A stretch of DNA of 55,419 bases from assembly GCA_964491625.1 (NCBI GenBank), contig CAZBIU010000002.1, positions 1-55,419 on the forward strand, written 5' to 3'. The translations under genes and the position numbers were made by a program. The notes under the pieces are model-generated. The model did no database searches. It was not told the origin of the DNA and was given only the letters and a program-made list of their open reading frames with translations. Positions 3,527-54,732 of the stretch are shown in pieces; position 1 is the stretch's first letter, and every line of letters begins with the position of its first letter. The DNA comes from an uncultured Myxococcales bacterium (GTDB lineage Bacteria; Myxococcota_A; Polyangia; Fen-1088).

Positions 3527-3660
3527 CGGGCTTTTCTTATAGCATCCGGAAAGCCTGCTGCCCGCGCCGCAGGCACCTGGCTGGCTACGTCATGGGTGAC
3601 AAGGCGCCCGGCGGCGCTCGGCACAGCCAGCGGGGCATTTCGTCGACAGACCCACCAGGG

Positions 3661-5156: not shown

Positions 5157-5272
5157 TGGTTGGTCCCTTCGAAACAATCGCGACTGCTCGGGAGAATAGC
5201 GAATATCGGGTCCTTATGTACATCAATTTTTCTTCCAGCCCATCTACAGGCGCGCAGATCGGAGCCAGCCGG

Positions 5273-35327: not shown

Positions 35328-38300
35328 CTAACCCGCCGTCTGGATGTCTTCGTCGGGCAAGAGGGCCGCGATCATCGTCGCGCCCGAGGTCTGCTGTGCG
35401 GTGGTCAGGCTCAACGGATTCTCGTCGGTGATAGCCAGGCCCGTGAGCTTGCCGGCGCCATCGTTGTAAAGGCCAACCAAGGTGTCCCAGTTGCTGGCGA
35501 GGTTGCTCGAAGCATCAGCAACCGCCACCGAGTGAACCGTGGCGTTGCCCGCCAGCGTCTGCGCGTCCCCCGCCACGGCATTGGTGACGTCTACCTGGTA
35601 GTTCAGGTTGTCGATCGTACCTAGCGCGGAGGCGCCTGTGGTCCAATCGGATTCGGAGAGGGATAGCATCGGCGAGTCGTCGGTGAGGTGGAGTTGGGAG
35701 AGAGTGTCTCCCAGGGCGAGCACGTCGCCGAAATTGTTCGACACGTTGTCGGCGCTGTCGCTGATGCTGATCGACGTGACCTCAGGGATATTCTGAAGGT
35801 TGGCAAGATCCGCCATGGCCGCTCCCGTGGCTTCAAGCTGGTAGGACCCGTCGATCTTGGACAGCGTGTCCCCGTTGTTGAGCACTTGTGCCGCCGTGAG
35901 CGAGATGGTTTCGTCCTGGTCCGTAAGCGAGATGGAATTCAGGTTCGTCGCGGACGCGAGCGCGTCGAAATTCGCCGCAATTTCCGTGCTCGAATCGCTG
36001 ACGTCCATCGAGGCGACGTGCGTGTCGCTGGCCAGGGTTGTCGCGTCCTGTGCCGAGACATCACTGAGGGCGACACTGTATTGGCCGTCCTTCACTTGCC
36101 CGAGGATGGCGGCCGAGTCGGCGTAGGTCTGGGCGGTCATTTCCATCGCGACGGTCGGATCTTCCACCACAAGCTGGGTGACTTTCGACTGTCCCGCCAG
36201 ATCGCCAAGGGCCGCCGTCAGCGCACTTGCGCTGTCCAGCACCTGGATAGATGTGACCTCGTCCGCGCTTGCCAGGTCGGACACCTGCGACACGCGAGCG
36301 CCCTGGATGGCGGCGGTAATGTCGGTGCTGAACTTCTGGCGTAAGGCATCGCCATTGTTCCAATCGTCAACCCCGATCTGCAGCGCCGAGGAATCGGTCT
36401 CGGCCACGTCGGTAAGCTTGGCGCCGATCTGCGCGAGCGAGCCCCAGGCGGACGACAAATTCGCACCGGTGTCGGACACGGCGAGGCTTGCGACTTGGGT
36501 GTCGGAGGCAAAGGTGGCTGCCTTGGCTGCCGAGACTTGCGAAAGGGAGGCCAGGTAGCCGCCCTGGATCTTGGCCAGCGCCGCCGCGTCTTGTTCGTAC
36601 TGTGCCCCGGTCAGGCTCAGCATGGTGCCGGGTGCGTCGGTCTGGGTGATGCTAAGGAGCTTCGATCCGAGGGAATTGAGATCCGATAGATTGGTGGCGA
36701 TGCTGTCGGCGTCGCCGGAGACATCGACGGTGGCGATCTTGTGGTTGTTGGTGACCAGGGTCTTCGCGTCGCTCGCCGCGACTCCCGTCACCGCCAGCTT
36801 GTAGCTGCCGCCCTTGATGAGAGACAGAACTGGCTGCGCGTCCGACAGCGCGCTTTCATCCAGTGACAGACTCACGGTCGGCGTCTGGTTGGTGATGCTG
36901 TGGATCTTGCTCCCATTGTCTCCGCCGACCAGAGTTTCGAGCGCCGAGAGGTTGTCCTCGATGGCACTGCCCTCGTCGCTCATGTCGATTTGGGTCACCG
37001 CCGTATCACCGGCAATGGCTTGCGCTTGCCCGACGCTGGCGCCGGTGACCGCGAAGGTCGCGTTCTGGTCGAATTTGCTGACGAGATTGTCGTGGACACC
37101 TGCCTGGTAGTTGTCCGCTGACAGCGAGATGGCGCCGCCGTCGCTCTTGGTGATCGAGGTGAGCTCTGCGCCGAGCGTGCGCAGCGCCGACCACTTGGCC
37201 AAGATATTGCGTCCGGTGTCGGTCACTGCGATTTGCCCCACATGCAAATTGGTGGCATCCGCCACCGCCTTGGCCGCGGATACTCCCGTCAGGTTGGAGG
37301 TGTAGCCGCCCCTGATCTTTGCCAACACGGAGGCGCGCGAATCGAGCTGCGTCTGGGTCAGGTCGAAAGCCGCGCCGACATCGGTCTGCTCGATGCTGGT
37401 AAGTCGGGAACCCAGGTGATAGAGCGCATCGAGCCCCGATTTGATATTGGCGCTGGAATCAGCGACCTGGAACTGGACGATGTGCTTGTTGCTGGCCAAA
37501 GTGGTCGCATCGGCTACGCCAGCGCCCGCAATCGCCACCTTGTAGTTGCCGCCCTTGACCTTGTCGAGCACCGCCTGGGTCGCCGCCATGTCGGCAGCTT
37601 GGAACCGCGACACGTCCATGACCAACGGTGTGCTGGAGTTCGTGACCGTAACGCTCGTCAGCTTGCCCTGCCCGTTGAGAGTCTCCAGGTCGTCCAGATT
37701 GGCTACGAGGTTCGCGCCCGAGTCAGCCACTTCGACGGTGTCCACATGGCTGGCCCCGGCTACCGTCGTCGCGGTTCCGGCACTCACATTGGTCACTGCC
37801 AGCTTGTAGGTGTGCTGTCCGTCATCGACGAACTTGCTAAGCAGGGTATCGCTTGCCGCGAATTGATCCGACGTCAAGCGGATGGCGTTGTTCTGATCGG
37901 TCACTTGCACCGTGGTGAGATTGTCCGCAAGGTCTTGCAGGAAGGACCAGTTGCGAGCCAGGTTCTTTGCCGTATCCTGGACATCGACCGTCACCACTTT
38001 GTGGTCCGACGCAAGCGCCCTGGTCTGCGTTGCCGATGCGTCGATGACGTCGAGCATATCGGAGGTGATGATCTTGCCGAGCACGACCTTGTCCTGCTGG
38101 TATTGTTGCCCGGTCAGGCTCAGTGGGTTCTGCGCGTCGGTCTGGCTGATGCTCTTGATACGCAGGCCCACCCGTTGCAAATCATCCAAGTGGCTGGCGA
38201 TGGCGTCGGTGGTGTCGGTGATGGCAATCGACTTGACCTTGCTGTTGGTCGACAGCCCGGAACTGCCGTCGGGACCCAGCGCATCGCTGACGCTGGCGCC

Positions 38301-38852
38301 GGTGATGGCGAGCGTGTAGCCGTGGTTCTTGATCTTGTCCAGGGCATCCTGATCGGCGGTCAGTTGTCCGACCGTGATGCTGAGATTTCCCTGGGTTCCG
38401 GTCTGCGAGATCTCTTGCAACAGCCCGTTTGTCGCGAGGGTCTCCAGGCTGTCCAAGTGGCTTTGAATCGAGGCCCGCGAATCAGCGACCTTCACCGAGG
38501 TCACGTAGCTTGGCAACGCAACGGAAATACTCGCCTTGGCCGCCGTGATGGCGACCGTTTGTCCCGAGCCCGCTCCCCAGATCGCAAGCGCTGCACCGTC
38601 CTTCTGATACTGGGCGCCCGTCACCGTCATGGCCGTGCTGGTGTCGGTAGTGGAGATCGATGTGATCTTGCCTGCCACCGACTGCAAGGCGTCCAGGTTC
38701 TTGGCGATGTTTTGGACACTATCGGAAATATCGACGGTGGCAGAAGGGTGATGGCGCAACTGGGCCAGAGCGTTCGCCACGGTCAGCGGCCCCGAGCCCG
38801 AGTAGTTGCCATTTGTTCCAGGAGAACCTGTAATGCCGCCTACGTCAGACAT
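35328..38852 (-). CDS. 1174-aa signal-less, Cys-free, acidic Ser/Thr/Ala/Asp-rich tandem-repeat protein, family unknown
   Basis: Start taken at ATG 38850-38852 (MSDVGGITGSPG...). There is no obvious SD, so the start is uncertain. 14 repeats of consensus V.s[IV].V.D[ST]a.n[IL]..N[LWF][DS].L..LG.kLtSI..TD...l.Lt..Q......L.KI.gG.Y.l.vtGvsa..A..la.... Confidence 0.8.
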   Translation of the reverse strand: MSDVGGITGSPGTNGNYSGSGPLTVANALAQLRHHPSATVDISDSVQNIAKNLDALQSVAGKITSISTTDTSTAMTVTGAQYQKDGAALAIWGAGSGQTVAITAAKASISVALPSYVTSVKVADSRASIQSHLDSLETLATNGLLQEISQTGTQGNLSITVGQLTADQDALDKIKNHGYTLAITGASVSDALGPDGSSGLSTNSKVKSIAITDTTDAIASHLDDLQRVGLRIKSISQTDAQNPLSLTGQQYQQDKVVLGKIITSDMLDVIDASATQTRALASDHKVVTVDVQDTAKNLARNWSFLQDLADNLTTVQVTDQNNAIRLTSDQFAASDTLLSKFVDDGQHTYKLAVTNVSAGTATTVAGASHVDTVEVADSGANLVANLDDLETLNGQGKLTSVTVTNSSTPLVMDVSRFQAADMAATQAVLDKVKGGNYKVAIAGAGVADATTLASNKHIVQFQVADSSANIKSGLDALYHLGSRLTSIEQTDVGAAFDLTQTQLDSRASVLAKIRGGYTSNLTGVSAAKAVADATNLHVGQIAVTDTGRNILAKWSALRTLGAELTSITKSDGGAISLSADNYQAGVHDNLVSKFDQNATFAVTGASVGQAQAIAGDTAVTQIDMSDEGSAIEDNLSALETLVGGDNGSKIHSITNQTPTVSLSLDESALSDAQPVLSLIKGGSYKLAVTGVAASDAKTLVTNNHKIATVDVSGDADSIATNLSDLNSLGSKLLSITQTDAPGTMLSLTGAQYEQDAAALAKIQGGYLASLSQVSAAKAATFASDTQVASLAVSDTGANLSSAWGSLAQIGAKLTDVAETDSSALQIGVDDWNNGDALRQKFSTDITAAIQGARVSQVSDLASADEVTSIQVLDSASALTAALGDLAGQSKVTQLVVEDPTVAMEMTAQTYADSAAILGQVKDGQYSVALSDVSAQDATTLASDTHVASMDVSDSSTEIAANFDALASATNLNSISLTDQDETISLTAAQVLNNGDTLSKIDGSYQLEATGAAMADLANLQNIPEVTSISISDSADNVSNNFGDVLALGDTLSQLHLTDDSPMLSLSESDWTTGASALGTIDNLNYQVDVTNAVAGDAQTLAGNATVHSVAVADASSNLASNWDTLVGLYNDGAGKLTGLAITDENPLSLTTAQQTSGATMIAALLPDEDIQTAG
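35331..38744 (-). repeat. 14 tandem diverged coding repeats of ~80 aa (~240 nt) with a three-unit super-period of ~247 aa (~740 nt)
   Basis: Repeat starts at aa 37, 117, 206, 286, 370, 458, 538, 619, 706, 787, 866, 946, 1025 and 1106 (hand count). Units 5/8/11, 6/9/12 and 7/10/13 resemble each other more than their neighbours. Confidence 0.8.
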
Positions 38853-39006
38853 CAAAGGGTACTTCGACACGCAGACGGCCGAAGTTAAGGCCGAATTGGA
38901 CAGACTTGAGAAGAAGCCCCAACCGCCCGCAACGCTTGAGGTTCTTCGGCAGTGCCTCTGCGGATCGTGAATTGCGGACCATCGCGGGTCATGACAACGT
39001 GCACGC

Positions 39007-40614
39007 ATGACCGGTTCGTCTGCAGGCTCTCCCAACAACTGTCCTACCTGTGGTGCGCCGCTCTCCGGCCCGTCCAGCGAGCGTTGCGACTACTGCGGGG
39101 CCAGCCTGCGCTCACCGGCCGCCGATCTCAATCGCAACCTTTCCAGCGCGATGTCAGCGTCACGCAAGGTTTGGCGACGATCGTGGATCTACACCGGCGT
39201 GGTGCTGGGAGCGTCGCTGCTGGTCGGAGTGGTCGGCCAGTTTGGGACCCGCCAAGCGGTTCGGCGCAGCAGCGAAGCGAGCCAGCCGTCCAGTGGAAAC
39301 GGGGCGAGACAGCCGTCGGCGGCGAACCAGAACAAGCCCAAGTCTCACGAGCTGTCTGAGCTACTGGCCACCCTCTCGCCGGCCACGGGCGACCCGAAGG
39401 TTCTGTTTTCGACCACGCCACCTGGCGCCATAGCCCTGCTGGACGCGGCGACCTCCCAGCAGCTTTGGAATGCGACGCCGGCCAGCGAGCGAGTCTCCCC
39501 GGACGCTGTCGTCGTGATTGGCGAACGCATTCTCGTCGTCACCCAGTCGAGCGTAGTCGCCTTGCAGATTCGCGACGGGAGCATCGAATGGCAGGCCTCG
39601 CTGGTGGCCGATTACTCGCAGTTCGGAAATCCTGCCAAGGTTCTGTCCGAGCGATTGCTTGTCCAACTGCGCGACGGAACCACGCAAGCTTTCGACATCA
39701 ACACCGGCAAGACCGTCTGGTCGGTCAAGCAACCCCCACCTTCTACGCAATGGCGTGCCGCCGGCGACGTGCTCGTGGACATCCGGTACAACGGCAAGAA
39801 GAGGAAAAAGCCGCTCGAGGTGTTCGTCAGCGACGTGGCGACGGGGCAGGAGACTCACGTCTTCGCACCACGCTGCTCCACCCACTCGGTCATCCCTGCG
39901 AACGAGCCCAGTCTGTCGGTGCCCGCGCTGCTCAGCGAGGACGGCAGCGACCTCTACCTGTTTTACGGATTCAATCGCTTCTGCATCGATCGCTGGAATC
40001 TGCGATCGGGCAAGCTGGTATGGCAAACCAACCGGAACGACGGGTTCGTCGACTCGTCACCGAGGGAGTTGCGTTTTCTGATGGATGACGAGCGCATCGT
40101 CTACGTCGGCACCGACGGCGTCTACCAGGTTCGTCGGCGCAACGGAGAGGTGACCAAGATCGTCGATCGTGAGCAGAACAAGCTCGTCCCCACCTACCTG
40201 AAGGACAACCTGCTCGTGCTCGCCGCCACGGCTTCCTGGGACAGTTTCGAGTGCAAAAGAGCGAAGACATGTGCGCTCTGGGGCGTGGACCTGGCCAAGC
40301 GTGAGGTGCTTTGGCGGTACACGCTTCCCAAAGTGGGATCCTTCCCGTCGAATTCGGAGAGGTTCGCCGGTGCCTTGTCCGGGGATGCGCTCGCGCTGGT
40401 GGAGGATGGGCAGGCCGGCCAGATCGTTTTCGATCGCATTGACCCGGCGACCGGGGTCAGCAAGCTTCATCGAGAGCCAAAGCCGGCCTCCACCGAGAAG
40501 TATTACTTCGAGGCACCGGAGCTTTCGCTGTCAGGTGGTTTCGTATGGTTCAAAGAGAACGGATTTTCCGCAATCGATCTGGCCTCGGGCTCGATCCGCT
40601 ATCGACTGCGCTGA
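39007..40614 (+). CDS. zinc-ribbon / single-TM / PQQ-like beta-propeller protein
   Basis: 'CPTCGAPLSGPSSERCDYCG' zinc ribbon, TM 'IYTGVVLGASLLVGVVGQF', then repeated '...G...W' blades ('DGSIEWQASL', 'TGKTVWSVKQ', 'SGKLVWQTNR', 'KREVLWRYTL'). Confidence 0.7.
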   Translation: MTGSSAGSPNNCPTCGAPLSGPSSERCDYCGASLRSPAADLNRNLSSAMSASRKVWRRSWIYTGVVLGASLLVGVVGQFGTRQAVRRSSEASQPSSGNGARQPSAANQNKPKSHELSELLATLSPATGDPKVLFSTTPPGAIALLDAATSQQLWNATPASERVSPDAVVVIGERILVVTQSSVVALQIRDGSIEWQASLVADYSQFGNPAKVLSERLLVQLRDGTTQAFDINTGKTVWSVKQPPPSTQWRAAGDVLVDIRYNGKKRKKPLEVFVSDVATGQETHVFAPRCSTHSVIPANEPSLSVPALLSEDGSDLYLFYGFNRFCIDRWNLRSGKLVWQTNRNDGFVDSSPRELRFLMDDERIVYVGTDGVYQVRRRNGEVTKIVDREQNKLVPTYLKDNLLVLAATASWDSFECKRAKTCALWGVDLAKREVLWRYTLPKVGSFPSNSERFAGALSGDALALVEDGQAGQIVFDRIDPATGVSKLHREPKPASTEKYYFEAPELSLSGGFVWFKENGFSAIDLASGSIRYRLR

Positions 40615-41245: not shown

Positions 41246-41773
41246 CTAGTCTTCGAAGCGTAGCCGAGCTGTTCCCGCCACCGGAAGCATGGGCACGCCG
41301 GCACGCTCAAGCGCTTTCGCTCCGTCCGAGAAGCGGTGACTCCTCACGGGCGCAGTCGCCCCAGTCTGGGGGTTGACGGCAGTGACGCCAGTGCGAGTTG
41401 CGGCGATTATCCGCCTGGAGAGCTTCCTCCATATGCCAAGGACGGCCTTGTCAGAAGTGCGGGCGGTAATTCCGGATTCCTGGAGACCAGCGTCGACCCT
41501 TCGGCCGATGTCGAGCAGGAGTGCGCTCGGGTTTCGATCCAAGAAGCCCATCATGCCATTGCCCCGCAGCACCGGCCGCTTGATTGTGAACGCAAGACGC
41601 TCCACATCGGTTTGATGTAGCACCAATACAAGAGCCTGGTTCTCCACGGGGATGACTTTGAACGGCTCGTACTTGATGGCAGAGACAAAGATCCGAGCGT
41701 CCTGGACGAAGTCCTGCACCAGCAAAAGGAGCTCGTCGGGAGTAGCGTGAAATTGAATTGAGATGTCGGACAT
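41246..41773 (-). CDS. candidate immunity protein for the Rhs C-terminal toxin (cytoplasmic, family unknown)
   Basis: 175-aa ORF starting 21 nt after the Rhs stop on the same strand. No signal peptide. Visibly AT-richer than its surroundings. Confidence 0.6.
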   Translation of the reverse strand: MSDISIQFHATPDELLLLVQDFVQDARIFVSAIKYEPFKVIPVENQALVLVLHQTDVERLAFTIKRPVLRGNGMMGFLDRNPSALLLDIGRRVDAGLQESGITARTSDKAVLGIWRKLSRRIIAATRTGVTAVNPQTGATAPVRSHRFSDGAKALERAGVPMLPVAGTARLRFED

Positions 41774-41794
41774 TTCTTTTCGAGCACCTGATTC

Positions 41795-44700
41795 TTAGTT
41801 GTTGTAAGCAACGAAGTCCGTTGGGAGTCCACCCGGACCATTCAGGTCCGCCAAAGCAGTCCGTTCGCGTGTTACTGGCTGCCCACTGGCGTCAACCTTA
41901 CCAACGTTTCGCCCACGGAGCTCGCCTTTCTTTGTCCGGTACAGGATGTCCGGTCGGCGGCCATCCTTCTGTCCGCCAGGCGTGGGGATGAGCTTTTCCT
42001 TCGCACGCCCGCCGCCAGCGAGAATGGTGTTTCCCTTTCTCTGGAGCTTGTTCGCCTCTGCGCGAATCTTGGCGTTGTGGGGTGCCTTGGGATCCGTCTT
42101 CGGCCCACGCTTTTTCCCCTTCCCACCCTTCTTTGCGTCCTCCTTGTTCTTGCCCTTGGCGTCCTTCTTGGCCTTCTTTGCCGCCTTCTTCGCGGCCTTC
42201 GCTCGCGGACACGCCTTCAGGCCATCCAGATCCACCGCCCGCAGTGGATTCTCGGTATAGGCGTATAGGTTGAGACTGCCCTCGGTGCCTGCGGGATCGG
42301 ATTGCAGATAGCGGCCGAGCTCGGGGCTGTAGGTTCGGAAGCGGTTGTCGTGTAGGCCCGTTTCGGAGTCGTAGTAGTGCCCTGGCCAGCGTAGTGGCTG
42401 GTGGAAATCTGCGCCCACGTCGATCTGGGCCGTGCCGTACGGGTCTATACGCGCGCGCCAGACAGCACGGCCGGCGTCGTCCAGCACCAGCTCGGGACAG
42501 CCGAGGTGGTCGGTATGGATGTGATAGCGCTTGCCGGTGGCCGGGTCGGCATCAACGCTCTCATACTCCAGGAACAGGATTGGTACCAGGGCCGCGGCGT
42601 CCGGGTAAACGTACACGCGCAGCCGGCCGTCGGGGAAGATCTCTGCGGCCAGGCGATCGGTATCCCAGTAGTACTGCCAGGTCTGGCCGCTGATGGTCTT
42701 CCGGGTCCGACGACCCAGACCGTCGTGAACCGCCCGGTAGCTGATGCCCGGCCCATCGATCGCGTTTAGTAGGTCGCGCGAATCGTAGGTGTACTTGGTG
42801 GTGCCCGCGCGACCTCGGCGTTGCGAGAGGTTGTCACGCTCGTCGTAGCTGAACTGGTCGTCGTTGGCCTCCAGCAGACGGTTGCCTGTCTGCATGCGTG
42901 CGGAGAGACCTGGGGCCTTGAGCAAGTTGCCCGCCCGGTCGTAGGCGTATTCATGGGCCGTGCCGTCCCACAAGCGCACCTTCGACAGCCGGTGTACTTC
43001 GTCGTGCTCGAAGATCGTGGTTCCGCGGAGGCTGTCATCGCGTTGGACCAGATCGCCTTCACCCGAGTACGCGAAACGCCGAGCCCACCCACCAGTCTTC
43101 CTTAGGCCGGGGCCTTCTGCGGCCTTGAGCAGACAACGTCCGCTGGGGTCGTAGTGGCTCAGCTCTTCGACGTCGTTGGAGCAAGCCCGTTCGACCAGGC
43201 CCGGCCCGCGCAGGTGCAGGCGCTGGGTCTGACCTCCCGGGTCCAGTACCACGGTCGTGGTGTCGTCGGTCTGGATGTACCTGGTGACGAATCTCCCGAG
43301 GACGCTGGTTTCGGCAAGGCGATCCGCCTCGAAGCGGTGGCGCGCGCCTTTGCCATCGCGTTCGTCCGCCGTGCGCTGGCCCTGGTCATCGTAGGCAAAG
43401 GTGACGGTGCCAGCCTGATTCTTGGCCTGGGCCAGCCGGCCGTTGGGTAGGTATTTGAAGTCCTCCACATCGCCAGAGCCCAAGAGGCGCTGTGCGATCT
43501 CATTGCCCTTGGTGATGGCCAGCTTGAGCAGCAAGCGCCCCTGGCCGTCGCGCTTTTCGGTAAGGTTATCGGCGGCGTCATAGACGTATCTCTCACGCAC
43601 CTTGCCGTGGCGACGTACTTCGACCAGGCGGTCCTTGAGGTCGTAGCTGTACTCGCTGCGGGTGCCGCCCGGATCGACGATGGCCGAGACCTCTTCGCTC
43701 TTGGTGTATGCGTATTCGGTAACGCTGCCTTGGCCGTCGATCTCGCGCAGTAGGAAGTTCCAAGACCCGTTTTCGTAGCGCGTGGTGCGGCCGTCGAAGT
43801 CGGTGTACCAGCGCTCGAAGCCGTTCTGGTCGTAGCCCCAACGCCGGCTCTTGCCGTCTTTGCGTTCCTCGCGAAGTAGTAGCCCCTGGACGTCCCTGAC
43901 CTTGGTGGGATCGGGCAGCGCGGCGCTCGGGTTGGGTCCCCACAGGTCGACCACCCAATGGGGCAACCAACGTTCCAGGGGCACGTCCGCGGGAACAACC
44001 TCGATGGGACCAGGCCATTCGCCGTGCTCCCATTCCACCGGGGTATCCGGCAGCTCGTGCGACAGCGGGTGCGGGGGAGGATTCTCTTGTTCTTCTAGCA
44101 GCTCCGGGTAGCCGAACGGGTCCAGCTTGGCGTAGGGCAGGTCGCCTTCGTCGTAGAGGATCTCGCTCTCGTTGCCGTTGGGATCCACCTCCTTCACAAC
44201 CCGCCCGTCCTCGTCCTTCAGATAGGCAGTCACCCCGCCGCATGGATCGATGATCTGGACCAGCTCTTTCTGGTCGTCGTAGTAGTAGCTGGTGACCGCG
44301 CCATCGCCGCGGGTGACCACAGTCAGGTGCTCTTCCACCTTGAATTCGAGGCGAAATTCCTCTACGCCGTCCTCGCCCCAGGTGTGGATGCAACGCCCGT
44401 CCTTGTCGTATTCGAAGAAGAAGCTGTAGCCGCGTCGGTCGATGGTTTGAATGACACGGTTGCTGTCGTCGTAGACATAGCGAAGGACGCCGCCGTAGGC
44501 GTTCTCGATCTCGATCAGGCGTCCCTCGCGGTCGTAACCGTAGCGAACAAGACGGTGCTTGTTGGTCGAGCCGGCCTCCAGCAGCACAGCGCCAGCGAGG
44601 TGCGTGCCGGCGTACTCGAACACCACGCGCTTGCTCACGTCGACTTGGATTGCGGCCAGCAGCCCCTTGTCGTACTGCAAGCGTAGGGGCGGGCGCGGGT

Positions 44701-45148
44701 CGTCCTCCTCATAGAAGATCCTGGTCGGTCGGGCGACCGGCTCCCGGTCGAAGCGGAACTCCAGGCTCGGGGCATCGCCCGGGGGATGGATTCGGAAGGT
44801 GGTGGAGCTGACCCGTTCCAGCTCGTGCCCACTGCGCATGCAGCAGTCGCGGTCGGCGGCAGGGAACGGGAACTGGATGTTGTCGGCCTCGGGGCCGGCG
44901 AAGGTCAGGCCGTCCAGGTCGAAGCGGAGCTCGAAGTCGAGCGAGAACCAGAACCCATGCCCGACGCCACGATCGATCTGGTTGCGATTGCTATCGTAGT
45001 AGCGAGCGCCGGCAAGGAAGATATGCGCTCCCTGAAGCTGGAAATCCGTCACGACCGACGTCTGCGCACCGGTCACGACGTCCACGGGATCGCCCACCAG
45101 GTGGAGGCTGTCCTTCCATGGCAGGCTGCCGCAACACTTGGTGGTCAT
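41795..45148 (-). CDS. Rhs-family T6SS effector: DUF6531-like N-terminus, YD-repeat shell, core with DLDGL cleavage motif, 140-aa unknown C-terminal toxin
   Basis: Start ATG 45146-45148 (MTTKCCGSLPW..VGDPVDVVTGAQ). YD repeats ('YGYDREGRLIEIENAYGGVLRYVYDDSNRV'). Core end 'RFRTYSPELGRYLQSDPAGTEGSLNLYAYTENPLRAVDLDGL'. The longer ORF N-terminus is shadow. Confidence 0.9.
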   Translation of the reverse strand: MTTKCCGSLPWKDSLHLVGDPVDVVTGAQTSVVTDFQLQGAHIFLAGARYYDSNRNQIDRGVGHGFWFSLDFELRFDLDGLTFAGPEADNIQFPFPAADRDCCMRSGHELERVSSTTFRIHPPGDAPSLEFRFDREPVARPTRIFYEEDDPRPPLRLQYDKGLLAAIQVDVSKRVVFEYAGTHLAGAVLLEAGSTNKHRLVRYGYDREGRLIEIENAYGGVLRYVYDDSNRVIQTIDRRGYSFFFEYDKDGRCIHTWGEDGVEEFRLEFKVEEHLTVVTRGDGAVTSYYYDDQKELVQIIDPCGGVTAYLKDEDGRVVKEVDPNGNESEILYDEGDLPYAKLDPFGYPELLEEQENPPPHPLSHELPDTPVEWEHGEWPGPIEVVPADVPLERWLPHWVVDLWGPNPSAALPDPTKVRDVQGLLLREERKDGKSRRWGYDQNGFERWYTDFDGRTTRYENGSWNFLLREIDGQGSVTEYAYTKSEEVSAIVDPGGTRSEYSYDLKDRLVEVRRHGKVRERYVYDAADNLTEKRDGQGRLLLKLAITKGNEIAQRLLGSGDVEDFKYLPNGRLAQAKNQAGTVTFAYDDQGQRTADERDGKGARHRFEADRLAETSVLGRFVTRYIQTDDTTTVVLDPGGQTQRLHLRGPGLVERACSNDVEELSHYDPSGRCLLKAAEGPGLRKTGGWARRFAYSGEGDLVQRDDSLRGTTIFEHDEVHRLSKVRLWDGTAHEYAYDRAGNLLKAPGLSARMQTGNRLLEANDDQFSYDERDNLSQRRGRAGTTKYTYDSRDLLNAIDGPGISYRAVHDGLGRRTRKTISGQTWQYYWDTDRLAAEIFPDGRLRVYVYPDAAALVPILFLEYESVDADPATGKRYHIHTDHLGCPELVLDDAGRAVWRARIDPYGTAQIDVGADFHQPLRWPGHYYDSETGLHDNRFRTYSPELGRYLQSDPAGTEGSLNLYAYTENPLRAVDLDGLKACPRAKAAKKAAKKAKKDAKGKNKEDAKKGGKGKKRGPKTDPKAPHNAKIRAEANKLQRKGNTILAGGGRAKEKLIPTPGGQKDGRRPDILYRTKKGELRGRNVGKVDASGQPVTRERTALADLNGPGGLPTDFVAYNN

Positions 45149-46149
45149 CACGACTCTCCCGCCGGGGCCGGAGGGGGGGGCGGACACCCACAGTCCCCGC
45201 CGACTCCCTTCTTGTTGCCGCCACCGCCCTTGCCGCTCAACTTTTTCGCCAGCCCCTTCAGCTTGTTCTTCAGCCACTTCGCGATGGCGTCGGTGGCGGG
45301 CACGGGCACGCCGGCGACCAGCACGGTGGGCGCGCCCATCATCACGAAGCCGGGCAGCTTGGGCGGAATCGCCGGGTCCGAGCCCATCATGGCACTGAGC
45401 GCGGCGGCGATGGCGTCGGCCACGGTTTGCGCCGCGGTCATGGACGCTGCCAGCACCTGGGCCGCTGCCATGGCCGCGGCGCCTTCCGTCTGGCTCGCGG
45501 CGGTGTCGGCCGCGCCCTCGAGCCCCTCGACCAGATCGATGCCGGCGCTGAGCAGCGCCAGCGCGCCCATCGGGCTGCGCGGCTTGCCCGGCGAGCACAC
45601 CGTGCACATGTCGGTCATGCGCGCGGCTCGGGCACCGCCGATGAAGACCTTCGACGATCCCAAGAACACCGTAAAATACGGCGCAAGGCCACCGCAGGTA
45701 GGCGCCATGCCCAAATCGCCCACGCGCGCTGCGGGCATGCCGCCCACCAGAACCCGCACGCAGGTTCCCAGGGTGATGGCGCCCATGCTGGGCAGGGGCA
45801 CGGGCGGCGCGGGGGGAATCAAGCTCGGCGGATGGGCGTGTGCGTGGGGCGCGCCGACGTAGAGCGAACCCAACTGCGCGGCCGGGAACGACGGCAAGAT
45901 GGCCGCAATGGCGTTGGTGGCCACCGCGACGCCGGTCTCGACCAGGTTGGTGTACATCTTCTCGGGCAGGCCCTTCACGGCGTCGATGGCGCCCGATACT
46001 TTTTTCACCGCTCCAATCGGATCCTTCAGGATCTCTTGCGGATGGGTTACCACATCGGCGGCAGCGCTGACCGAATCGGTGGTCGACTTGATGGTCGATT
46101 CCACCGTCTGGCCGAGAGCCGTGAGTCCAGAGTCGACGTAGCCACTCAT
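45148..46149 (-). CDS. PAAR-domain protein with helical N-terminal region and Ala-rich hydrophobic insertion
   Basis: 'HAHAHPP...VLVGGMPAARVGD', 'VFIGGARAARMTD' and, ~85 aa later, 'VLVAGVPVPATD'. The TGA overlaps the Rhs ATG by 1 nt (TGATG). Confidence 0.8.
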   Translation of the reverse strand: MSGYVDSGLTALGQTVESTIKSTTDSVSAAADVVTHPQEILKDPIGAVKKVSGAIDAVKGLPEKMYTNLVETGVAVATNAIAAILPSFPAAQLGSLYVGAPHAHAHPPSLIPPAPPVPLPSMGAITLGTCVRVLVGGMPAARVGDLGMAPTCGGLAPYFTVFLGSSKVFIGGARAARMTDMCTVCSPGKPRSPMGALALLSAGIDLVEGLEGAADTAASQTEGAAAMAAAQVLAASMTAAQTVADAIAAALSAMMGSDPAIPPKLPGFVMMGAPTVLVAGVPVPATDAIAKWLKNKLKGLAKKLSGKGGGGNKKGVGGDCGCPPPPPAPAGES

Positions 46150-47399
46150 GCGGGATAGGGCCTTATGCCTTGCTGTCGCAGCCAGGCGATTTCGGGTTCA
46201 ATCTCACGGCGGCGCGCCGTCAGGTTCGCTTCTTTGTAAAGGCCGTGGATGCGTTCGAGGCAGTCGAGCAGGTGCTCCTTCGACTGGGCATCGCGGGCCA
46301 GGGCCACGCCGGCGTTCCAGCTTTCCCAGGCCGCCTTGGTGTCACCGAGCTTGTGCTTGCAAAACCCCATCTGTTCCAGGCAGCGCAACTGCAGCTCGTC
46401 GTTGCCGACCACCTTGGCCAGCATGGAAAGTCCCTCGTAGTAACCGAAGGCCGACACGAAGTCGCCGGCCAGGCGATGCAAGTTGGCCAGGTTGCCGGTG
46501 ACGTTGATGAGCGACGCGGGATCCTGGGCCTGCACCGCGGGCACCAGGGCCAGCTCGTAGTGGCGCTTCGCCTCTGGCTTGTTCCCCATCCGATCGAACA
46601 CCTCGCCGAGGCCGTTGAGGCTTAAGGCATGCAGGGGCTTGGGTCCGAGTGCCCCGTGGTAGCGAGCGAGCAAGGCGTATTTCTTCGACGCCTCGGGGAA
46701 GCGGCGATACGCCAGATCCATACCGGCCAGCAGCAGCACCGCCTGCATCCGCTGCGGTAAGGGCAGAGCGGCGTCGTTCATTTCGTCTTCCAGCGAGGCC
46801 TGCACCGCGTTTGGTCCCATATCCGGGGCGTAGACCTCGATGGCCCGCTTGGCCTGGGCGGCGGCGGCATAGAGCGGCGCCGGCTGGGCTTCCTCGCGCA
46901 CGAGGATGCGCATGTGGTGACACCAGGGTTGCGGCATTTCGTGCGCGGCCAGCGCGAGAATCAGTTGCGCGAAGTCTTGCGGGTCGCTGATCTTGCTGGG
47001 CAGAAAGCCCGCCACCAGATGAGTGACTTCCAGATCGTCGATAAGAGATCGCGCGAACACCAGCAAAGCCCGAAGGCGATCCACGGGGGGCAGCCTCGGG
47101 TTGCTGATCTCTGCCGGCAGCTCGCCGGGAACCTCGGAGCGGGCCTTGCGCAGCTCGGGCACCAGTACGACGTAGCGCACGCGGAAGGACTCGACCACGG
47201 CCTGGGCGTATTTGCTTGCGCTTTCGAAGGGCTCTTGGAACAGCCAGAAGGCGTCCGCTGACTCTTGCTCGATGCCGTCTAGGGTGGAAACCAGCGGCAG
47301 GAGCTCGGCCGGCCCGGCGCGCACCACCAGCAAGAGCGCCCGGCGCTGCGCCAAGAATGCCTCCAGGCGGAGGCGCATGTCCGCGAAGAGCTTGCGCAT
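46146..47399 (-). CDS. 417-aa protein with unknown N-terminal half and C-terminal TPR half; candidate T6SS adaptor/chaperone
   Basis: Start ATG 47397-47399, 2 nt after the vgrG stop. ATGA overlap with the PAAR gene. TPR-like 'EASKKYALLARYHG...GLGEVFDRMGNKPEAKRHYELAL...GNLANLHRLAGDFVSAFGYYEG'. Confidence 0.75.
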   Translation of the reverse strand: MRKLFADMRLRLEAFLAQRRALLLVVRAGPAELLPLVSTLDGIEQESADAFWLFQEPFESASKYAQAVVESFRVRYVVLVPELRKARSEVPGELPAEISNPRLPPVDRLRALLVFARSLIDDLEVTHLVAGFLPSKISDPQDFAQLILALAAHEMPQPWCHHMRILVREEAQPAPLYAAAAQAKRAIEVYAPDMGPNAVQASLEDEMNDAALPLPQRMQAVLLLAGMDLAYRRFPEASKKYALLARYHGALGPKPLHALSLNGLGEVFDRMGNKPEAKRHYELALVPAVQAQDPASLINVTGNLANLHRLAGDFVSAFGYYEGLSMLAKVVGNDELQLRCLEQMGFCKHKLGDTKAAWESWNAGVALARDAQSKEHLLDCLERIHGLYKEANLTARRREIEPEIAWLRQQGIRPYPA

Positions 47400-47401
47400 G
47401 G

Positions 47402-49753
47402 CTAGCCGATTTTGATGAGCGCCCCGCTGATCTCGTGCATGCCCACCGATGCCGAGGTGACCTTCACGCCGTTGACGGTTGTTCCGGACGGCTCGAAGGC
47501 GGCGTTGTTGTTGGCATTGCCTATCTTGACCTTCACACCCGTGATCTCGATGGTGCCGTCGCTCTTCATCGAGATCGAAGCCGAGCCGCACTTGATGGCC
47601 ACCTCGGAATTGGCGGTGACGGTGGCGGAGCTGCCCGACAGGTTGACCTCGCAGCCACCGTTGTTCACCACGATGTCTTTACCTTTCATAAAGAGGGTGT
47701 TGCCCCCTTGGGTCACCTTGAACTGGGTGTCCGCGGTGGTGTTGTACTCGCCGTGAACCGTGACGGTCTTGTCCGACCCCACCACCTCCAGCGTGTCGCC
47801 TTTCTCGACGGTTTCGGTGCGGCCGGCGTGGTACTTACCGGTGTGCGCGCCGGTGATCTCGTCGAGATTGGTGCCGGTCACCTTCATCTCGCGCTCGGCC
47901 TTGTAGGTCTGGGTTTCTTTCTTGGTGACGGTGGTGCTCTGGGTTCCCGTCACGCTGACCGAGTGATTGCCACCCACGCTGACGCTGCGGTCGGCGCCCA
48001 CCGACGTCGACTGGTTGTGCTTGACCGTCGTCGACATGTCCTTTTCGGCCTGGATGTGCAGCTCTTCCTTGCCCTTCAAGTCCTCGAACCGGATCTCGTT
48101 GAAGTTCTGGTCGGTGCCACCCATGCTGCTGCGGCTCTTGATTCCGCTTTGGGTCTTGTTCTTGGGCAGCGTGTAGGGCGGCATGTTGTCGGTGTTGTAG
48201 ACCCGGCCGGTGATGATAGGTCGGTCGGGATCGCCGTCGAGGAACTCGACGATGACCTCTTGCCCGACGCGCGGGATGTGGATCGCTCCCCACTGCTGGC
48301 CCGCCCAGACTTGTGCTACGCGCACCCAGCAGGAGGCCTTCTGGTGGCGGCGGTGCGACCTGTCCCAGTCGAGCTTCACCTTCACGCGCCCGAGCTTGTC
48401 AGTGTAGATCTCGTCCTTGTCCTTACTGGGTGGCTTTGCGCTCCCGCTTCCGCCCTCCTGCTGATCGCCCTCGCCGTCGTCGTCGTCCTCGTCACCTTCC
48501 CCGACCACGACCGCGGTCTGCGGCCCTTCGATTCTCGGCTTGAAGGCCGTTCGCCGCGGGCGGAATTGCAGCTCGGAATCGAGCAGGTTGTACCGCGCGG
48601 TGAAGGCATCGCCGGCCCCTACGGTGTCGCCGCTTTCGTGCTCGTTGATGGAGATGGAGTACGTCGCCTGGGTGATAAGGTATTTCTTGTCCAGGTCGGC
48701 GTCGCTCCAGAACGGATTGTAGTGCTCGTCAGTGGCTCTGGTCAGCTTCACAAGGTCACCGACGCCAAGACCCAGCGTATTGCCCTCCACCTCGATCACC
48801 GTGTTGGCGGCTTGCTCGGTTTGCATCCGAACCATGGCATCTTGCGATGCCTGCTCTTCCTCGGTCAGACCCCCGGGATAGTCATACGCTTCGAATTTCG
48901 ATCCCGGCTGCTCCTCGCCGCTGACCTGCCATTCGATCTGCGCTTGCTTGGCTCGATTCGTGGTGTAGTCGTAACCCCGCAGAACGCTGAACTTGGAAGG
49001 GTACAGCGCACCGGAAGCGCGCAGCCCCCAGAAGTGCTCACTGACGGTGTTTCGGTCGTCCCGGTTGACCCGGCACAAGACCGAATCGTAGCCCGGAACC
49101 GTGTCGTGGTTGGCCATAAGATTGGCGAGCACCAAGGTGTGTTTGTCGGCTTCGTGGGTGAAGAAGTAGTAGATGCCTTCGTCCTCCAGGAGGCGCTGCA
49201 CGAAGTTGAGGTCCGTCTCTCGATACTGCACGCAGTACCGCCGATCAACGTCCACGTTGGAGTCCGCCGTGATGTCCTTGATCAAGGTGACTTCGCGTTG
49301 CTTGAGGACCTTCTTGACGATGGTGAGGGTGTCCTGGGAAGGCGGGCCGCTTTCGGGGTCAAGCCCGGCATTGCTCGCGTCGTTGAAGATCCGGCAGTTC
49401 TGCGCGTACGCCAGTCGGGCGAGGGTGGGGACCAAGACCACGGCGTACCGGGTGTGGCGCAAGGTCGGGCCCACCTTGGCAAAGTAGGCGACGATGCCGT
49501 TGAAGTACCGGTACTGGTGCTGTGGATCGACGTCGGCGCCGCGGTCGATGCGCACTGTGAGCGGCTTGCCCAAGAGATCGCCGACCGGAATCGCGGCGTT
49601 TTCGGACAGAATGGTCAGGTCGTACCGATAGGGAGCTCCCAGCGCCTCGCGACCCTGAAAGGTTTCGAGGAGCAGGTCGGTCTTAGGCTCGAGGTCTGAG
49701 CTGCTGCCGCTCTTCGGTCCGAGGATGGTGATGTTGCTGGCATTGGCTGGCAT
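47402..49753 (-). CDS. vgrG: type VI secretion spike protein VgrG (TssI)
   Basis: Start ATG 49751-49753 (MPANASN...). 'ETFQGREALGAPYRYDLTILS', 'YCVQYRETDLNFVQRLLEDEGIYYFF', 'NFNEIRFEDLKGKEELHIQAEKD' and a gp5-like beta-helix tail. Confidence 0.92.
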   Translation of the reverse strand: MPANASNITILGPKSGSSSDLEPKTDLLLETFQGREALGAPYRYDLTILSENAAIPVGDLLGKPLTVRIDRGADVDPQHQYRYFNGIVAYFAKVGPTLRHTRYAVVLVPTLARLAYAQNCRIFNDASNAGLDPESGPPSQDTLTIVKKVLKQREVTLIKDITADSNVDVDRRYCVQYRETDLNFVQRLLEDEGIYYFFTHEADKHTLVLANLMANHDTVPGYDSVLCRVNRDDRNTVSEHFWGLRASGALYPSKFSVLRGYDYTTNRAKQAQIEWQVSGEEQPGSKFEAYDYPGGLTEEEQASQDAMVRMQTEQAANTVIEVEGNTLGLGVGDLVKLTRATDEHYNPFWSDADLDKKYLITQATYSISINEHESGDTVGAGDAFTARYNLLDSELQFRPRRTAFKPRIEGPQTAVVVGEGDEDDDDGEGDQQEGGSGSAKPPSKDKDEIYTDKLGRVKVKLDWDRSHRRHQKASCWVRVAQVWAGQQWGAIHIPRVGQEVIVEFLDGDPDRPIITGRVYNTDNMPPYTLPKNKTQSGIKSRSSMGGTDQNFNEIRFEDLKGKEELHIQAEKDMSTTVKHNQSTSVGADRSVSVGGNHSVSVTGTQSTTVTKKETQTYKAEREMKVTGTNLDEITGAHTGKYHAGRTETVEKGDTLEVVGSDKTVTVHGEYNTTADTQFKVTQGGNTLFMKGKDIVVNNGGCEVNLSGSSATVTANSEVAIKCGSASISMKSDGTIEITGVKVKIGNANNNAAFEPSGTTVNGVKVTSASVGMHEISGALIKIG

Positions 49754-49855: not shown

Positions 49856-49873
49856 CCTGACGTGCACGTCAGG
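49856..49873. promoter_or_regulatory. perfect 18-bp palindrome CCTGACGTGCACGTCAGG in the divergent vgrG / lipoprotein promoter region
   Basis: Read directly from the sequence. It lies 103 nt upstream of the vgrG ATG and 88 nt upstream of the lipoprotein ATG. Confidence 0.45.
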
Positions 49874-50692: not shown

Positions 50693-50714
50693 GTCGAGCC
50701 TAAGGTCGAGCCTA
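50691..50714. repeat. tandem 12-mer AGGTCGAGCCTA x2 filling the gap between two convergent stop codons
   Basis: 50691-50702 is identical to 50703-50714. The plus-gene TAG (50690-50692) and the minus-gene TAG (50712-50714) are both embedded in it. Confidence 0.8.
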
Positions 50715-51818
50715 CCCGCCCAACCAACGAACCAGCGTGAGCGACGGTGCGTAGGTCCAGCCTCCGTCGACCACGGCTTCGACCAACGGGTTTCGCATCT
50801 CGGTCGCGGAGAAGCGGTAGCGGTACGCCTCGGCCAGTTGCCACTTGCCGTCGCGGAATCCGAGCCCCACTGCCGCGTCGCTTTCGTACGCAAAGAAAGT
50901 GATTCCACGCCAGTACGAAAGGTTGGCGAAGAAGCCTGTGAGCCCGGCTCGCCAAGATAGGGAGCGGGATGACTCGATCACCGAGACTCGCGTCCGGTCC
51001 GGGTCAAGCCGCAGCGTCAGCCGCTGTGAAAAACGGATCCGTCCGGCCCCCTGTAGCTGCAGCCAGCGCGCATCGGCGTACACCCACTCGGCTTGGAAGA
51101 CGCCCGGGCGGATCTCCTCAAGGCGCCAGGGCAGGTCGAGCTGGTTGACTTGCAGGAGTCGTGACTGTAGCTCGTCGGCGGATACCGGGACCGCGTCCGG
51201 ATCAGGTTCAATGCGTCCGGCCCACGACGCACCTCGGAGCATGAAGAAGGCGATGGCCAGCATGTAGATACCGATGCCGATCGCAACGCTTCCAAGGTGC
51301 CGGTCGAACAATTCGAACAGCGGGTCGATGTGTGGGTTCTTGGTCACAACCGCAAGGTGTGCCAGCCGGCGATCGACCGCTTCACGATCCGCCGCCTCCA
51401 CACCGATTGCGACGCGGTCGATACGCAGCCAGGCCACGGCCCTGCCGCTTGCGGAGTTGAAGAAGCGGGTTATCGAAACCTTGGCGTTTGTCTCACTGAG
51501 TGACCGGGTGGGGGGCGCGCGCCAGATGCCTTCGATGGCCGCCTTCGCCGCCGCGCTCGACGAACGAACCAGCACGGTTACTGTCGAACCGTCGTCGAAG
51601 CGCTGCACCGACGAGCCTCCGCGTGGGAGGAGCTCGGGGTGGACGGTGTACGGCGCGGGCCCGACAGCGAAGTCCAGACCCACCAGGGCGAAGGGCAAAA
51701 GAAACAAGCCGAATGTGATGCTGAAATAGATTGCGACACGGGACAGGCGTGGCCCCAAGCTCCGGGCGCTGCGCGTGGCAAGATCGTGTCCGCCGGGGCC
51801 GAGGTTTATCGCAGACAT
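50712..51818 (-). CDS. two-TM membrane protein, family unknown (last gene of vgrG island 2)
   Basis: TMs 'VAIYFSITFGLFLLPFALVGL' and 'VAIGIGIYMLAIAFFML' flank a ~130-aa loop. ~170-aa C-terminal domain. Starts 27 nt after the upstream stop. Confidence 0.6.
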   Translation of the reverse strand: MSAINLGPGGHDLATRSARSLGPRLSRVAIYFSITFGLFLLPFALVGLDFAVGPAPYTVHPELLPRGGSSVQRFDDGSTVTVLVRSSSAAAKAAIEGIWRAPPTRSLSETNAKVSITRFFNSASGRAVAWLRIDRVAIGVEAADREAVDRRLAHLAVVTKNPHIDPLFELFDRHLGSVAIGIGIYMLAIAFFMLRGASWAGRIEPDPDAVPVSADELQSRLLQVNQLDLPWRLEEIRPGVFQAEWVYADARWLQLQGAGRIRFSQRLTLRLDPDRTRVSVIESSRSLSWRAGLTGFFANLSYWRGITFFAYESDAAVGLGFRDGKWQLAEAYRYRFSATEMRNPLVEAVVDGGWTYAPSLTLVRWLGG

Positions 51819-51845
51819 TGCAGGCCTGCCGGGTTGCAGAATAGG

Positions 51846-52388
51846 TCAGGCCTTCGGCGATTGAGCTGGGTCATCGGTTTGCGCCGGCTCTGCATCGGCG
51901 TTCAAGTCAATGTTCGTGTAGATGGCGGCCCAAGCCATGAACCAAGCGACAGACACAATGAAGGCGGGGATCAGCCAAGTCACGACGATGAGGATGGGCT
52001 CGCGAGGTAGAATGGCCATGATAAGTAGGCCCATACCGATACACCAGCAAGACATTATGCTGGGCCAAAGCCAGAACGTCAGCCAGTCGCCCCTGCGAGC
52101 GGCCCTTCGAAGCGTGTCGATGTTGGCGGTCAGCACAGCCTTGACGCCGATAATCGGCCCCACTGACTGCATATCGCGGCGAACGTAGGGCTCCGTCGTG
52201 GCACCGTAATCGAACATGTCCCGGGTCTCCTGCTCGCTCATGCGTTCGATCTTGCCCTTCACGTGCTTGAAGAGGACTACAAAGAGGCACACACCCAGCA
52301 GCATGAGAACTGCTCCCGCAACCGCAAGGCACACGGTCGCTGTCCAATCGATGCCGAGCCAGTGAAACCAGACTGAGCTATGGGACAT
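51846..52388 (-). CDS. small polytopic (about 4 TM) membrane protein, family unknown
   Basis: Start at MSHSSVWFHW. TMs 'ATVCLAVAGAVLMLLGVCLFVVLF', 'WLWPSIMSCWCIGMGLLIMAIL' and 'ILIVVTWLIPAFIVSVAWFMAWAAIY'. Confidence 0.6.
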   Translation of the reverse strand: MSHSSVWFHWLGIDWTATVCLAVAGAVLMLLGVCLFVVLFKHVKGKIERMSEQETRDMFDYGATTEPYVRRDMQSVGPIIGVKAVLTANIDTLRRAARRGDWLTFWLWPSIMSCWCIGMGLLIMAILPREPILIVVTWLIPAFIVSVAWFMAWAAIYTNIDLNADAEPAQTDDPAQSPKA

Positions 52389-52421
52389 CGTTGTCCCTCC
52401 GAGGTCCAATACCCACTGCCA

Positions 52422-53489
52422 TCAAGCGATCTCAATCGTGTCGTGTGCGATCTCGAAAACACGTTGCGCCCGCAGAACCGTCAGGGCGTCATTCTCGAAC
52501 AATGGGCTGAGCATCAACAGCGTGATGCTGTATCCGGGTCGTGCGATGAAGCCCATCCGACTCGTGACCTCAGCCTTGGCCAGACGGCCCTTCCCGACGA
52601 AACCGCCCCGCCAACCCGGTACCGCGAGAGATCGAGGATCGTCATCGACGGTGAACGGGCGGGGCGCTTGGGTTGGCGCAAAGCCTGTCTTCTGCAGCTT
52701 CGCCGAGGCTTCTGCGACCATAGCGTCGAGCGCCGGTGGCGGCTGGTTATCGGCAAGCCTCTCGACCTTTGCTTGCACATAGGCGAGCAGGGTCTTGCCG
52801 TAGGCGTCGATGAGTCGGAGGTGGACAGCCGAGATTCCGTCGGAGGCCGAGGTCTGCGACTCGACCGACCAACTTCTTGGGTAGGCCAATTGAAAATCGG
52901 GATTCTCCGCCTTGGCGACCATCCATGGCTCCATCTGGGTGGTCCCGGTACCGTTTTCCACCTGGAACGTATCGTGCGCCACCCAAAAAATCTCCTTGGC
53001 CTCATCCCAATACTTCCGTGCGCACAGACAATTCACGGCAAAGATATTGTGGGCATCAAGGCGGACGCTGGTGCGCCGAACCTCCGGAACGTTGTTGACA
53101 ACGCGTGTGGCGACCACGTCGTAGAACAGCCGAGCCCCTGCAAACCACTTTGCCGAAACCAGATTCCATCCCTCGACGGTCAGGCTCTGCCTGATCCAAG
53201 CGTCGATGGGGATTTCGTATGGCATTGGCGTGACAGTGACCGCGATGACCGGTGCGCCTGGCTGGACCGAGCCAGTCATGAACCCGATACCCCGGGTGGC
53301 GAAGGGCCCACTCGCGACCGGGCCGAATTGCTTGGAATAAGCCCAGGTTCGAGGAACGGCGAGGCTATAGACATAGGTTGGAGGGCCCCCAGCGCTCATC
53401 TTGAGCTTGATGTGGGTCTGCTCCAGTGTTTGCAGTACACGCGGTGCAGTAAACGGAACATCAGGAGGCAATTGATTTGCAGTGGCCAT
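52422..53489 (-). CDS. cytoplasmic protein with two tandem DcrB/PsbP/Eag(DUF1795)-like halves (tentative)
   Basis: Start ATG 53487-53489, 16 nt after the PAAR stop. No signal peptide. 'YVYSLAVPRTWAYS' at about aa 39-52 and 'FQLAYPRSWSVES' at about aa 202-214 each open a ~150-aa beta-rich half. Confidence 0.55.
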   Translation of the reverse strand: MATANQLPPDVPFTAPRVLQTLEQTHIKLKMSAGGPPTYVYSLAVPRTWAYSKQFGPVASGPFATRGIGFMTGSVQPGAPVIAVTVTPMPYEIPIDAWIRQSLTVEGWNLVSAKWFAGARLFYDVVATRVVNNVPEVRRTSVRLDAHNIFAVNCLCARKYWDEAKEIFWVAHDTFQVENGTGTTQMEPWMVAKAENPDFQLAYPRSWSVESQTSASDGISAVHLRLIDAYGKTLLAYVQAKVERLADNQPPPALDAMVAEASAKLQKTGFAPTQAPRPFTVDDDPRSLAVPGWRGGFVGKGRLAKAEVTSRMGFIARPGYSITLLMLSPLFENDALTVLRAQRVFEIAHDTIEIA

Positions 53490-53505
53490 CAGTGCTGTGT
53501 CTCTT

Positions 53506-54708: not shown

Positions 54709-54732
54709 GGGTCTTCAAGCTCGCCGCGGCTA

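Follow-up and report, generated by a model that had tools for sequence, protein, structure and literature searches.

An orphan type VI secretion cargo island of an uncultured Myxococcales bacterium with a probable TPR-type adaptor, a stand-alone PAAR protein and a PAAR-less Rhs toxin

The window studied here is the whole stretch of 55,419 nucleotides (nt) at positions 1 to 55,419 of contig CAZBIU010000002.1, from an uncultured Myxococcales bacterium (assembly GCA_964491625.1). Its minus strand carries five adjacent genes at positions 41246-49753. They encode a VgrG spike protein, a protein with tetratricopeptide repeats (TPR), a PAAR tip protein, an Rhs protein and a small protein assigned to immunity. 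We read these genes as an auxiliary ('orphan') cargo operon of a type VI secretion system (T6SS), in which the TPR protein would serve as adaptor and the Rhs protein would be delivered. We give this overall model a probability of about 0.8. The island is of the standard auxiliary vgrG type, and its overall logic is textbook. The TPR protein is probably an adaptor of an undescribed class.

The first-pass annotation described five minus-strand genes with near-zero spacing. We re-read the open reading frames (ORFs) and their four junctions and found all five intact, exactly at the positions claimed. The vgrG gene (tssI; 47402-49753) encodes 783 amino acids (aa). It is followed by the TPR gene (46146-47399; 417 aa), whose product combines an alpha/beta domain with a TPR solenoid and is the probable adaptor or chaperone of the PAAR/Rhs cargo. 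The stand-alone, extended PAAR protein (45148-46149) has 333 aa, the Rhs protein (41795-45148) has 1117 aa and the candidate immunity protein (41246-41773) has 175 aa. Only 2 nt separate the vgrG stop from the TPR start (TAG-CC-ATG). The TPR and PAAR genes overlap in ATGA, the PAAR and Rhs genes overlap by 1 nt in TGATG, and 21 nt lie between the Rhs TAA and the immunity ATG. On the minus strand, a scan detected no terminator-like site between the cassette genes. In vgrG, TPR, PAAR and Rhs, the G+C content at third codon positions (GC3) is 0.80-0.85, which favours the minus-strand reading over plus-strand shadow ORFs. A programmed frameshift fusing PAAR and Rhs was dismissed, as GAGTCGTGATGACC contains no slippery sequence. 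The families Phage_GPD, PAAR_motif, RHS_repeat and DUF6531, proposed beforehand as a check with hmmscan, were all matched in the expected proteins.

The order vgrG-TPR-long PAAR-DUF6531 Rhs is conserved across phyla. It is present in 15 of the 15 related loci with enough flanking sequence (L001-L004, L017-L023, L025, L027, L040 and L041; the L004 contig stops just inside the gene following PAAR). The TPR gene thus lies between vgrG and PAAR, the position of an adaptor gene, in every informative locus. It is also found on two cut contigs, L026 (Gemmatales) and L024 (Longimicrobiales). The hosts are metagenome-assembled genomes (MAGs) labelled delta proteobacterium, Myxococcales, Polyangiaceae, Bdellovibrionales, Fimbriiglobus/Gemmatales (Planctomycetota) and Longimicrobiales (Gemmatimonadota). 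Across the related loci, the TPR proteins share 32-80% identity with the window protein. The homologues span the full length (~417 aa); their identity reaches as low as 45% in the protein database and 32% in species-representative genomes. An identical TPR protein sequence, in the same gene arrangement, occurs on 23 contigs from several ENA/JGI metagenome samples. The coordinates of contig k141_970883 do not match those of the window, which thus derives from a different assembly of this locus.

The spacing is conserved as well. In 12 related loci, the gap between vgrG and the TPR gene is 1-15 nt, and the PAAR and Rhs genes overlap or are separated by at most 43 nt. A candidate PAAR start overlaps the TPR stop in 9 of these 12 loci, as ATGA in 8 of them (for L003, the start picked by the script is an in-frame GTG further upstream, and the gene call has this same 4-nt overlap). 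Conservation in these 12 loci makes the near-zero spacing more than chance. The earlier proposal of one translationally coupled unit fits both the sequence and the conserved spacing, from which we infer co-transcription and co-translation. As a separate observation, the Myxococcales MAG of locus L019 contains two fragments 3' of its full cassette (13557-14807). One is a 54-aa PAAR fragment, 80% identical to residues 139-191 of the window PAAR protein. The other is a C-terminal fragment of the Rhs shell (residues 651-981), with 77% identity. They resemble a displaced or orphan module that recombination left behind.

The TPR protein matches only TPR families in Pfam, TPR_12 among them, and a profile search of the PDB returned generic TPR matches only. 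We obtained an AlphaFold2 model from an alignment of 34 sequences, with a mean predicted local distance difference test (pLDDT) score of 92 and a predicted template modelling (pTM) score of 0.76. The model predicts an alpha/beta domain at the N-terminus (residues ~1-210), containing five strands, and a C-terminal set of ten TPR-type helices (residues ~214-409). In Foldseek, the full model matches peptide-binding TPR domains of the PDB best, those of LGN/Pins and kinesin light chain (KLC); the TPR half dominates the matches. A groove of the LGN/KLC type, if the model is right, would fit the role of an adaptor or chaperone. The N-terminal domain has no Pfam match at E<=5, and a homologue search with this domain alone yielded three fragments, all from the same family. 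In the family alignment, the domain contains a nearly invariant PWCHHMR motif, whose Cys and His residues are C160, H161 and H162 of the TPR protein.

A 2023 review recognizes three classes of T6SS adaptors, namely DUF4123, DUF1795 and DUF2169. Pfam detects none of these signatures in the 417 aa, and the protein thus falls outside the established adaptors. In the literature searched, we found no TPR-type T6SS adaptor. The TPR proteins mentioned there are immunity proteins or unrelated proteins.

The PAAR protein exceeds the threshold of PF05488 (PAAR_motif), with 44.5 bits against a cut-off of 27 (E = 1.8e-11), and the match covers residues 123-183 only. Three PAAR-type motifs are present: PAAQ at residue 89, PAAR at 139 and RAAR at 174. 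The protein is not the compact cone of ~95 aa, as it scores 21 bits in NF033420 (T6SS_PAAR_dom) against a cut-off of 124. It matches the Tox-PAAR-like (DUF4150-type) family at E = 0.19 only. The family alignment delimits an N-terminal extension of ~85 aa. An Ala-rich insertion of ~70 aa (residues ~190-260) precedes the last strand, and the basic C-terminal tail ends in a Gly-rich GCGCP. Most homologues likewise end in a run of Gly and a Cys, such as GGGGGCP, GCGCP or GCGK (positions 45148-45200 of the window, and L002-L022). No transmembrane-like segment was detected, and no 19-residue Kyte-Doolittle window reaches 1.7. By this absence, the protein is not of the prePAAR/Eag type. A direct reading of the N-terminal 85 aa likewise finds no prePAAR motif (AARxxDxxxH).

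The Rhs protein matches DUF6531, RHS_repeat (4.6e-31), RHS and TEN_YD-shell, and TIGR03696 over residues 902-977. Its shell (residues 1-977; 42218-45148, minus strand) consists of an N-terminal peptide, DUF6531, YD repeats and the RHS core. The N-terminal peptide is short, variable and Cys-containing, and it runs straight into DUF6531 (45090-45148). The Rhs homologues also have a Cys in this peptide. No PAAR domain was found in the Rhs protein, and direct reading of its N-terminus finds no signal peptide.

We also consider a bolder reading, which we hold at somewhat less than even odds when all its parts are taken together. The TPR protein would represent a new class of adaptor or spike-assembly protein in at least two to three phyla, namely Myxococcota-like lineages and Planctomycetota, and Gemmatimonadota by the TPR gene on a cut contig. 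A separate PAAR protein and a PAAR-less Rhs protein would form a non-covalent, 'split' arrangement in place of a fusion. The toxin would belong to a large unnamed family with at least 845 clusters. In the boldest part, the Cys-His-His motif would join the Gly/Cys tail of PAAR to the Cys of Rhs; the PAAR tails, the Rhs N-terminal Cys and PWCHHMR may together form a metal-bridged or covalent PAAR-Rhs link.

The same residues could be explained in another way, with the island still being T6SS cargo. The TPR protein might be a spike-assembly factor or an enzyme, with PWCHHMR, for example, maturing the Gly/Cys tail of PAAR and the Cys of Rhs or joining them. It might also be a co-secreted part or a regulator. 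We regard this explanation as unlikely. In its favour, the PWCHHMR motif is nearly invariant and lies in a domain that resembles no known adaptor family. The GGGGGCP-like tails occur in most PAAR homologues, and Cys residues are found in the Rhs N-terminal peptides. Moreover, the Tvp accessory proteins work in spike assembly, beyond simple cargo binding (PMC13373197). Against it, no catalytic fold was identified in the TPR protein, and its TPR half belongs with the peptide-binding domains of LGN/KLC type, as would suit an adaptor or chaperone. The loci L023, L025 and L027 keep the TPR gene although their PAAR proteins lack the C-terminal Cys.

The assignment to a T6SS was also part of the first-pass annotation, and it is upheld by VgrG and by the relatives. 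VgrG has gp27-like, OB-fold and beta-helix domains, detected by Pfam as Phage_GPD (9.5e-62), Phage_base_V and Gp5_trimer_C. It scores 494.7 bits in TIGR03361 (cut-off 186) and 380.8 bits in TIGR01646 (cut-off 121.8). By its domains and its TIGR03361 score, the protein is a T6SS VgrG (TssI). That the module serves a T6SS is best supported by two relatives in which the cassette lies directly 3' of core genes. The order is hcp-tagJ-tssE-tssF-tssG-clpV-vgrG-TPR-PAAR in L004 and tssG-clpV-vgrG-TPR-PAAR-Rhs in L021.

In the window itself, Pfam scans of ~45 further ORFs across the 55 kb detected no hcp, tss or clpV gene, in agreement with the earlier statement that hcp, tssA-M and clpV are missing; this result is by Pfam only, and several ORFs have no Pfam match at all. 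On longer contigs carrying the same locus, no tss gene was found in the ~7 kb upstream of vgrG2, the vgrG gene of a second island described below. In the close relatives L040 and L041, the cassette is an orphan too. The term 'orphan' is thus appropriate as far as the data reach.

The lack of a core gene in the window and the ~7 kb past vgrG2 would also be expected if the cassette served another injection system (an extracellular contractile injection system or a phage-tail-like particle), or if Rhs were exported by another route. DUF6531-Rhs proteins are also described among Sec-dependent and type VII secretion-dependent toxins. We consider this very improbable. VgrG reaches 495 bits on a T6SS-specific model, the cassette lies within a tss cluster in L004 and L021, and Rhs is without a signal peptide and is invariably linked to vgrG and PAAR. 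Still less probable is a decaying or silent remnant, which the orphan location might suggest, since the five ORFs are intact with high GC3, protein sequences are conserved across phyla and the same TPR sequence and arrangement recur on the 23 metagenome contigs.

The cargo operon reading is further consistent with the end of the Rhs protein, which is polymorphic. The RHS core ends in a cleavage-type motif, PLRAVDLDGL (973-977), and the similarity among relatives stops at about residues 977-1000. Behind the same shell, L003 encodes an SCP1201-like deaminase with Imm1, L040 encodes Ntox46 with a Tsi6-like protein, and L041 encodes Tox-GHH with SMI1_KNR4. The protein has the repeats, the core motif and the variable C-terminus of the Rhs/YD polymorphic toxins, and the next gene downstream encodes the candidate immunity protein. 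Both the Rhs C-terminal region and the gene of this 175-aa protein have a lower GC3, of 0.70, which is consistent with a swapped-in module.

The Rhs C-terminal region (residues 978-1117; 41798-42217, minus strand) consists of a Lys/Ala-rich linker of 36 aa and a toxin domain of ~104 aa, which starts at RGPKTD (residue 1014) and belongs to an unclassified family. The domain has no match in Pfam or NCBIfam; in Pfam, 14 family members gave only noise at E<=10. The best PDB profile match has E = 0.37, and Pfam finds nothing over the domain in 7 long carriers. Homologues are nevertheless numerous, with at least 845 representative proteins at E<=0.001 in an exhaustive hidden Markov model search. The domain ends at the last residue of the protein in 121 of the 149 best matches. 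Its carriers include SpvB/TcdB-type Rhs, DUF6531-Rhs, PT-HINT and Ig-repeat (Big_7) proteins. Extreme C-terminal position, diverse carriers and a small neighbouring immunity gene place it in the generic class of polymorphic-toxin C-termini. Judged by sequence, it is a genuine, widespread and unnamed polymorphic-toxin domain. The alignments show conserved residues (G-P, H-N, GG, E, RRPD, N-x-G, R-E and A..DL), and the conserved H, E, RRPD, N and RE suggest an enzyme, possibly a nuclease. A PD-(D/E)xK nuclease was considered from RRPD...NVGK but could not be supported: the 'K' position varies (K, R, L), and N-V-G replaces E-x-K.

The 175-aa protein, which appears cytoplasmic, also belongs to an unclassified family, with no match in Pfam, NCBIfam or the PDB. 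It had been proposed as the immunity protein by its position. We found that homologues with 35-50% identity follow the same toxin domain immediately in L015 and L016, and that homologues do so in 7 of 10 metagenome loci with upstream sequence. This conserved pairing supports its assignment as the cognate immunity protein. In L036, a lone immunity homologue (3995-4573) follows directly after a dnaN-like gene; no toxin domain is nearby, and it is an orphan immunity gene. Taken together, the earlier claim that every accessory part is non-canonical is largely right. It applies to the TPR protein, to the PAAR protein with its extensions and insertion, and to the toxin and immunity proteins without a family match. 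The exception is the Rhs shell, which is canonical.

We propose the following mechanism for the cassette. VgrG would form the trimeric spike, and the extended stand-alone PAAR protein would cap it. The PAAR-less DUF6531-Rhs cocoon would dock non-covalently on the VgrG-PAAR tip. The TPR protein would act in the producer cell as adaptor or chaperone, with its groove holding the PAAR extensions, the Rhs N-terminus or both until loading. A T6SS encoded elsewhere would then fire and carry Rhs into a neighbouring cell. There, the C-terminal toxin of ~140 aa might be freed by the Rhs aspartyl autoprotease at DLDGL and become active. In the producer, the 175-aa protein would neutralize the toxin.

Several points weigh against this scheme. 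The TPR protein could instead be structural, regulatory or secreted, and the conserved Cys-His-His motif hints at more than passive binding. In the cleavage motif DLDGL, L replaces the P of the usual DPxGL. The single-sequence AlphaFold2 model of the toxin region is poor (pLDDT 58) and unusable for a fold search. The junctions are looser in the Planctomycetota loci, with gaps of 15-43 nt. Finally, the linkage to tss genes is seen in the relatives L004 and L021, and with a metagenome contig as the source, a T6SS core in this organism is presumed.

A second vgrG-PAAR island lies directly upstream on the same strand (50712-55419, minus), with no TPR gene and no Rhs. Its vgrG2 (minus strand) is cut by the window end and encodes 767 aa in L005 and L011. 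Its PAAR protein (53506-54708, minus strand) has 400 aa with a long charged N-terminal region. Three further genes of the island, for products of ~355, 180 and 368 aa, have no Pfam hit, and weak matches make the 180-aa product membrane-like. The genes of this second island probably form a further set of cargo. Past the window end, on the upstream side of vgrG2, L011 contains a divergent group (2331-6628) encoding a histidine kinase, two response regulators and a protein with a sigma-54-interaction domain. It is possible that these two-component and sigma-54-type genes regulate both vgrG islands.

A perfect palindrome of 18 nt, CCTGACGTGCACGTCAGG, is found at 49856-49873, within the 207 bp between vgrG and the divergent gene upstream of it. 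It lies 103-120 nt upstream of the vgrG ATG and is unique in the window, where 0.04 matches are expected by chance. Among the fetched loci, it occurs only on contigs carrying the same locus. The palindrome may be an operator. By eye, we found no convincing sigma-54 promoter (GG-N10-GC) upstream of vgrG, and the scan for sigma-70 promoters and terminators gave background levels.

In the rest of the window, Pfam identifies kinases, an ABC transporter, glycosidases, an extracytoplasmic function (ECF) sigma factor and a SIR2-like/TPR protein. The last of these (22764-27197, minus strand) has 1477 aa, with an N-terminal SIR2_2 domain (27 bits, cut-off 24.5) followed by many TPR repeats. Its predicted architecture is reminiscent of NAD-depleting defence proteins or STAND-like proteins. 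A further ORF of 1236 aa (35328-39038, minus strand; GC3 0.79) has no Pfam match at E<=0.001 and is called as 1174 aa in metagenome contigs.

The discovery of T6SS effectors leans on few adaptor markers, namely DUF4123, DUF1795 and DUF2169. If the proposed role is true, the TPR protein would be a marker that opens Myxococcota, Planctomycetota and Gemmatimonadota, with their almost unexplored T6SS biology, to effector mining. The cassette would also represent another way to mount Rhs cocoons on the spike. Many delivery scaffolds carry the widespread toxin domain. It is nevertheless absent from Pfam and the PDB, and both its activity and the mechanism of immunity are directly testable.

Among known systems, vgrG-DUF2169-DUF4150/PAAR-like clusters are described in Agrobacterium (Tde2/Atu3641) and in Serratia (Tvp class I, TvpA). 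In them, DUF2169 stabilizes the PAAR-type protein and is needed for the loaded spike (PMC10433429, PMC13373197). The likeness lies in the synteny, with an accessory gene conserved between vgrG and the PAAR-type gene; the TPR gene occupies the position of DUF2169 (TvpA). The parts differ. Here, the accessory protein has an alpha/beta domain and TPR without a DUF2169 match, the tip is a PF05488 PAAR instead of DUF4150, and PAAR carries no fused toxin, which is found on a separate Rhs protein.

The Eag (DUF1795)-dependent PAAR-Rhs proteins, Serratia Rhs1/Rhs2 with EagR and P. protegens RhsA with EagR1, place a cocoon toxin on the VgrG tip (PMC4524185, PMC8765631). They also have a dedicated helper gene, a DPxGL-type toxin release and an immunity gene directly downstream. 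However, their PAAR is fused to the Rhs N-terminus, and their prePAAR and transmembrane helices are shielded by Eag. In our island, the PAAR gene is separate, there is no transmembrane-like segment and Pfam scans find no DUF1795 gene.

The Tap/Tec (DUF4123) adaptors can work with co-chaperones, as in TseT-TecT-co-TecT-PAAR4 (Burkinshaw 2018, as cited in PMC10433429). There, a non-secreted adaptor joins a cargo effector to PAAR/VgrG, and the adaptor gene marks the adjacent effectors. In contrast, the TPR protein has no DUF4123 match and another fold, and its gene has a fixed place in the order vgrG-TPR-PAAR-Rhs.

Orphan vgrG islands, with vgrG and effector/immunity genes away from the core cluster, feed a distant T6SS in the 'a la carte' delivery by VgrG (PMC4067218, PMC4924876). 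The island of the window belongs to this category and shows no difference in principle. What is undescribed are the families and the arrangement set on this known type of island: the helper protein, the split PAAR and Rhs, and the toxin/immunity pair.

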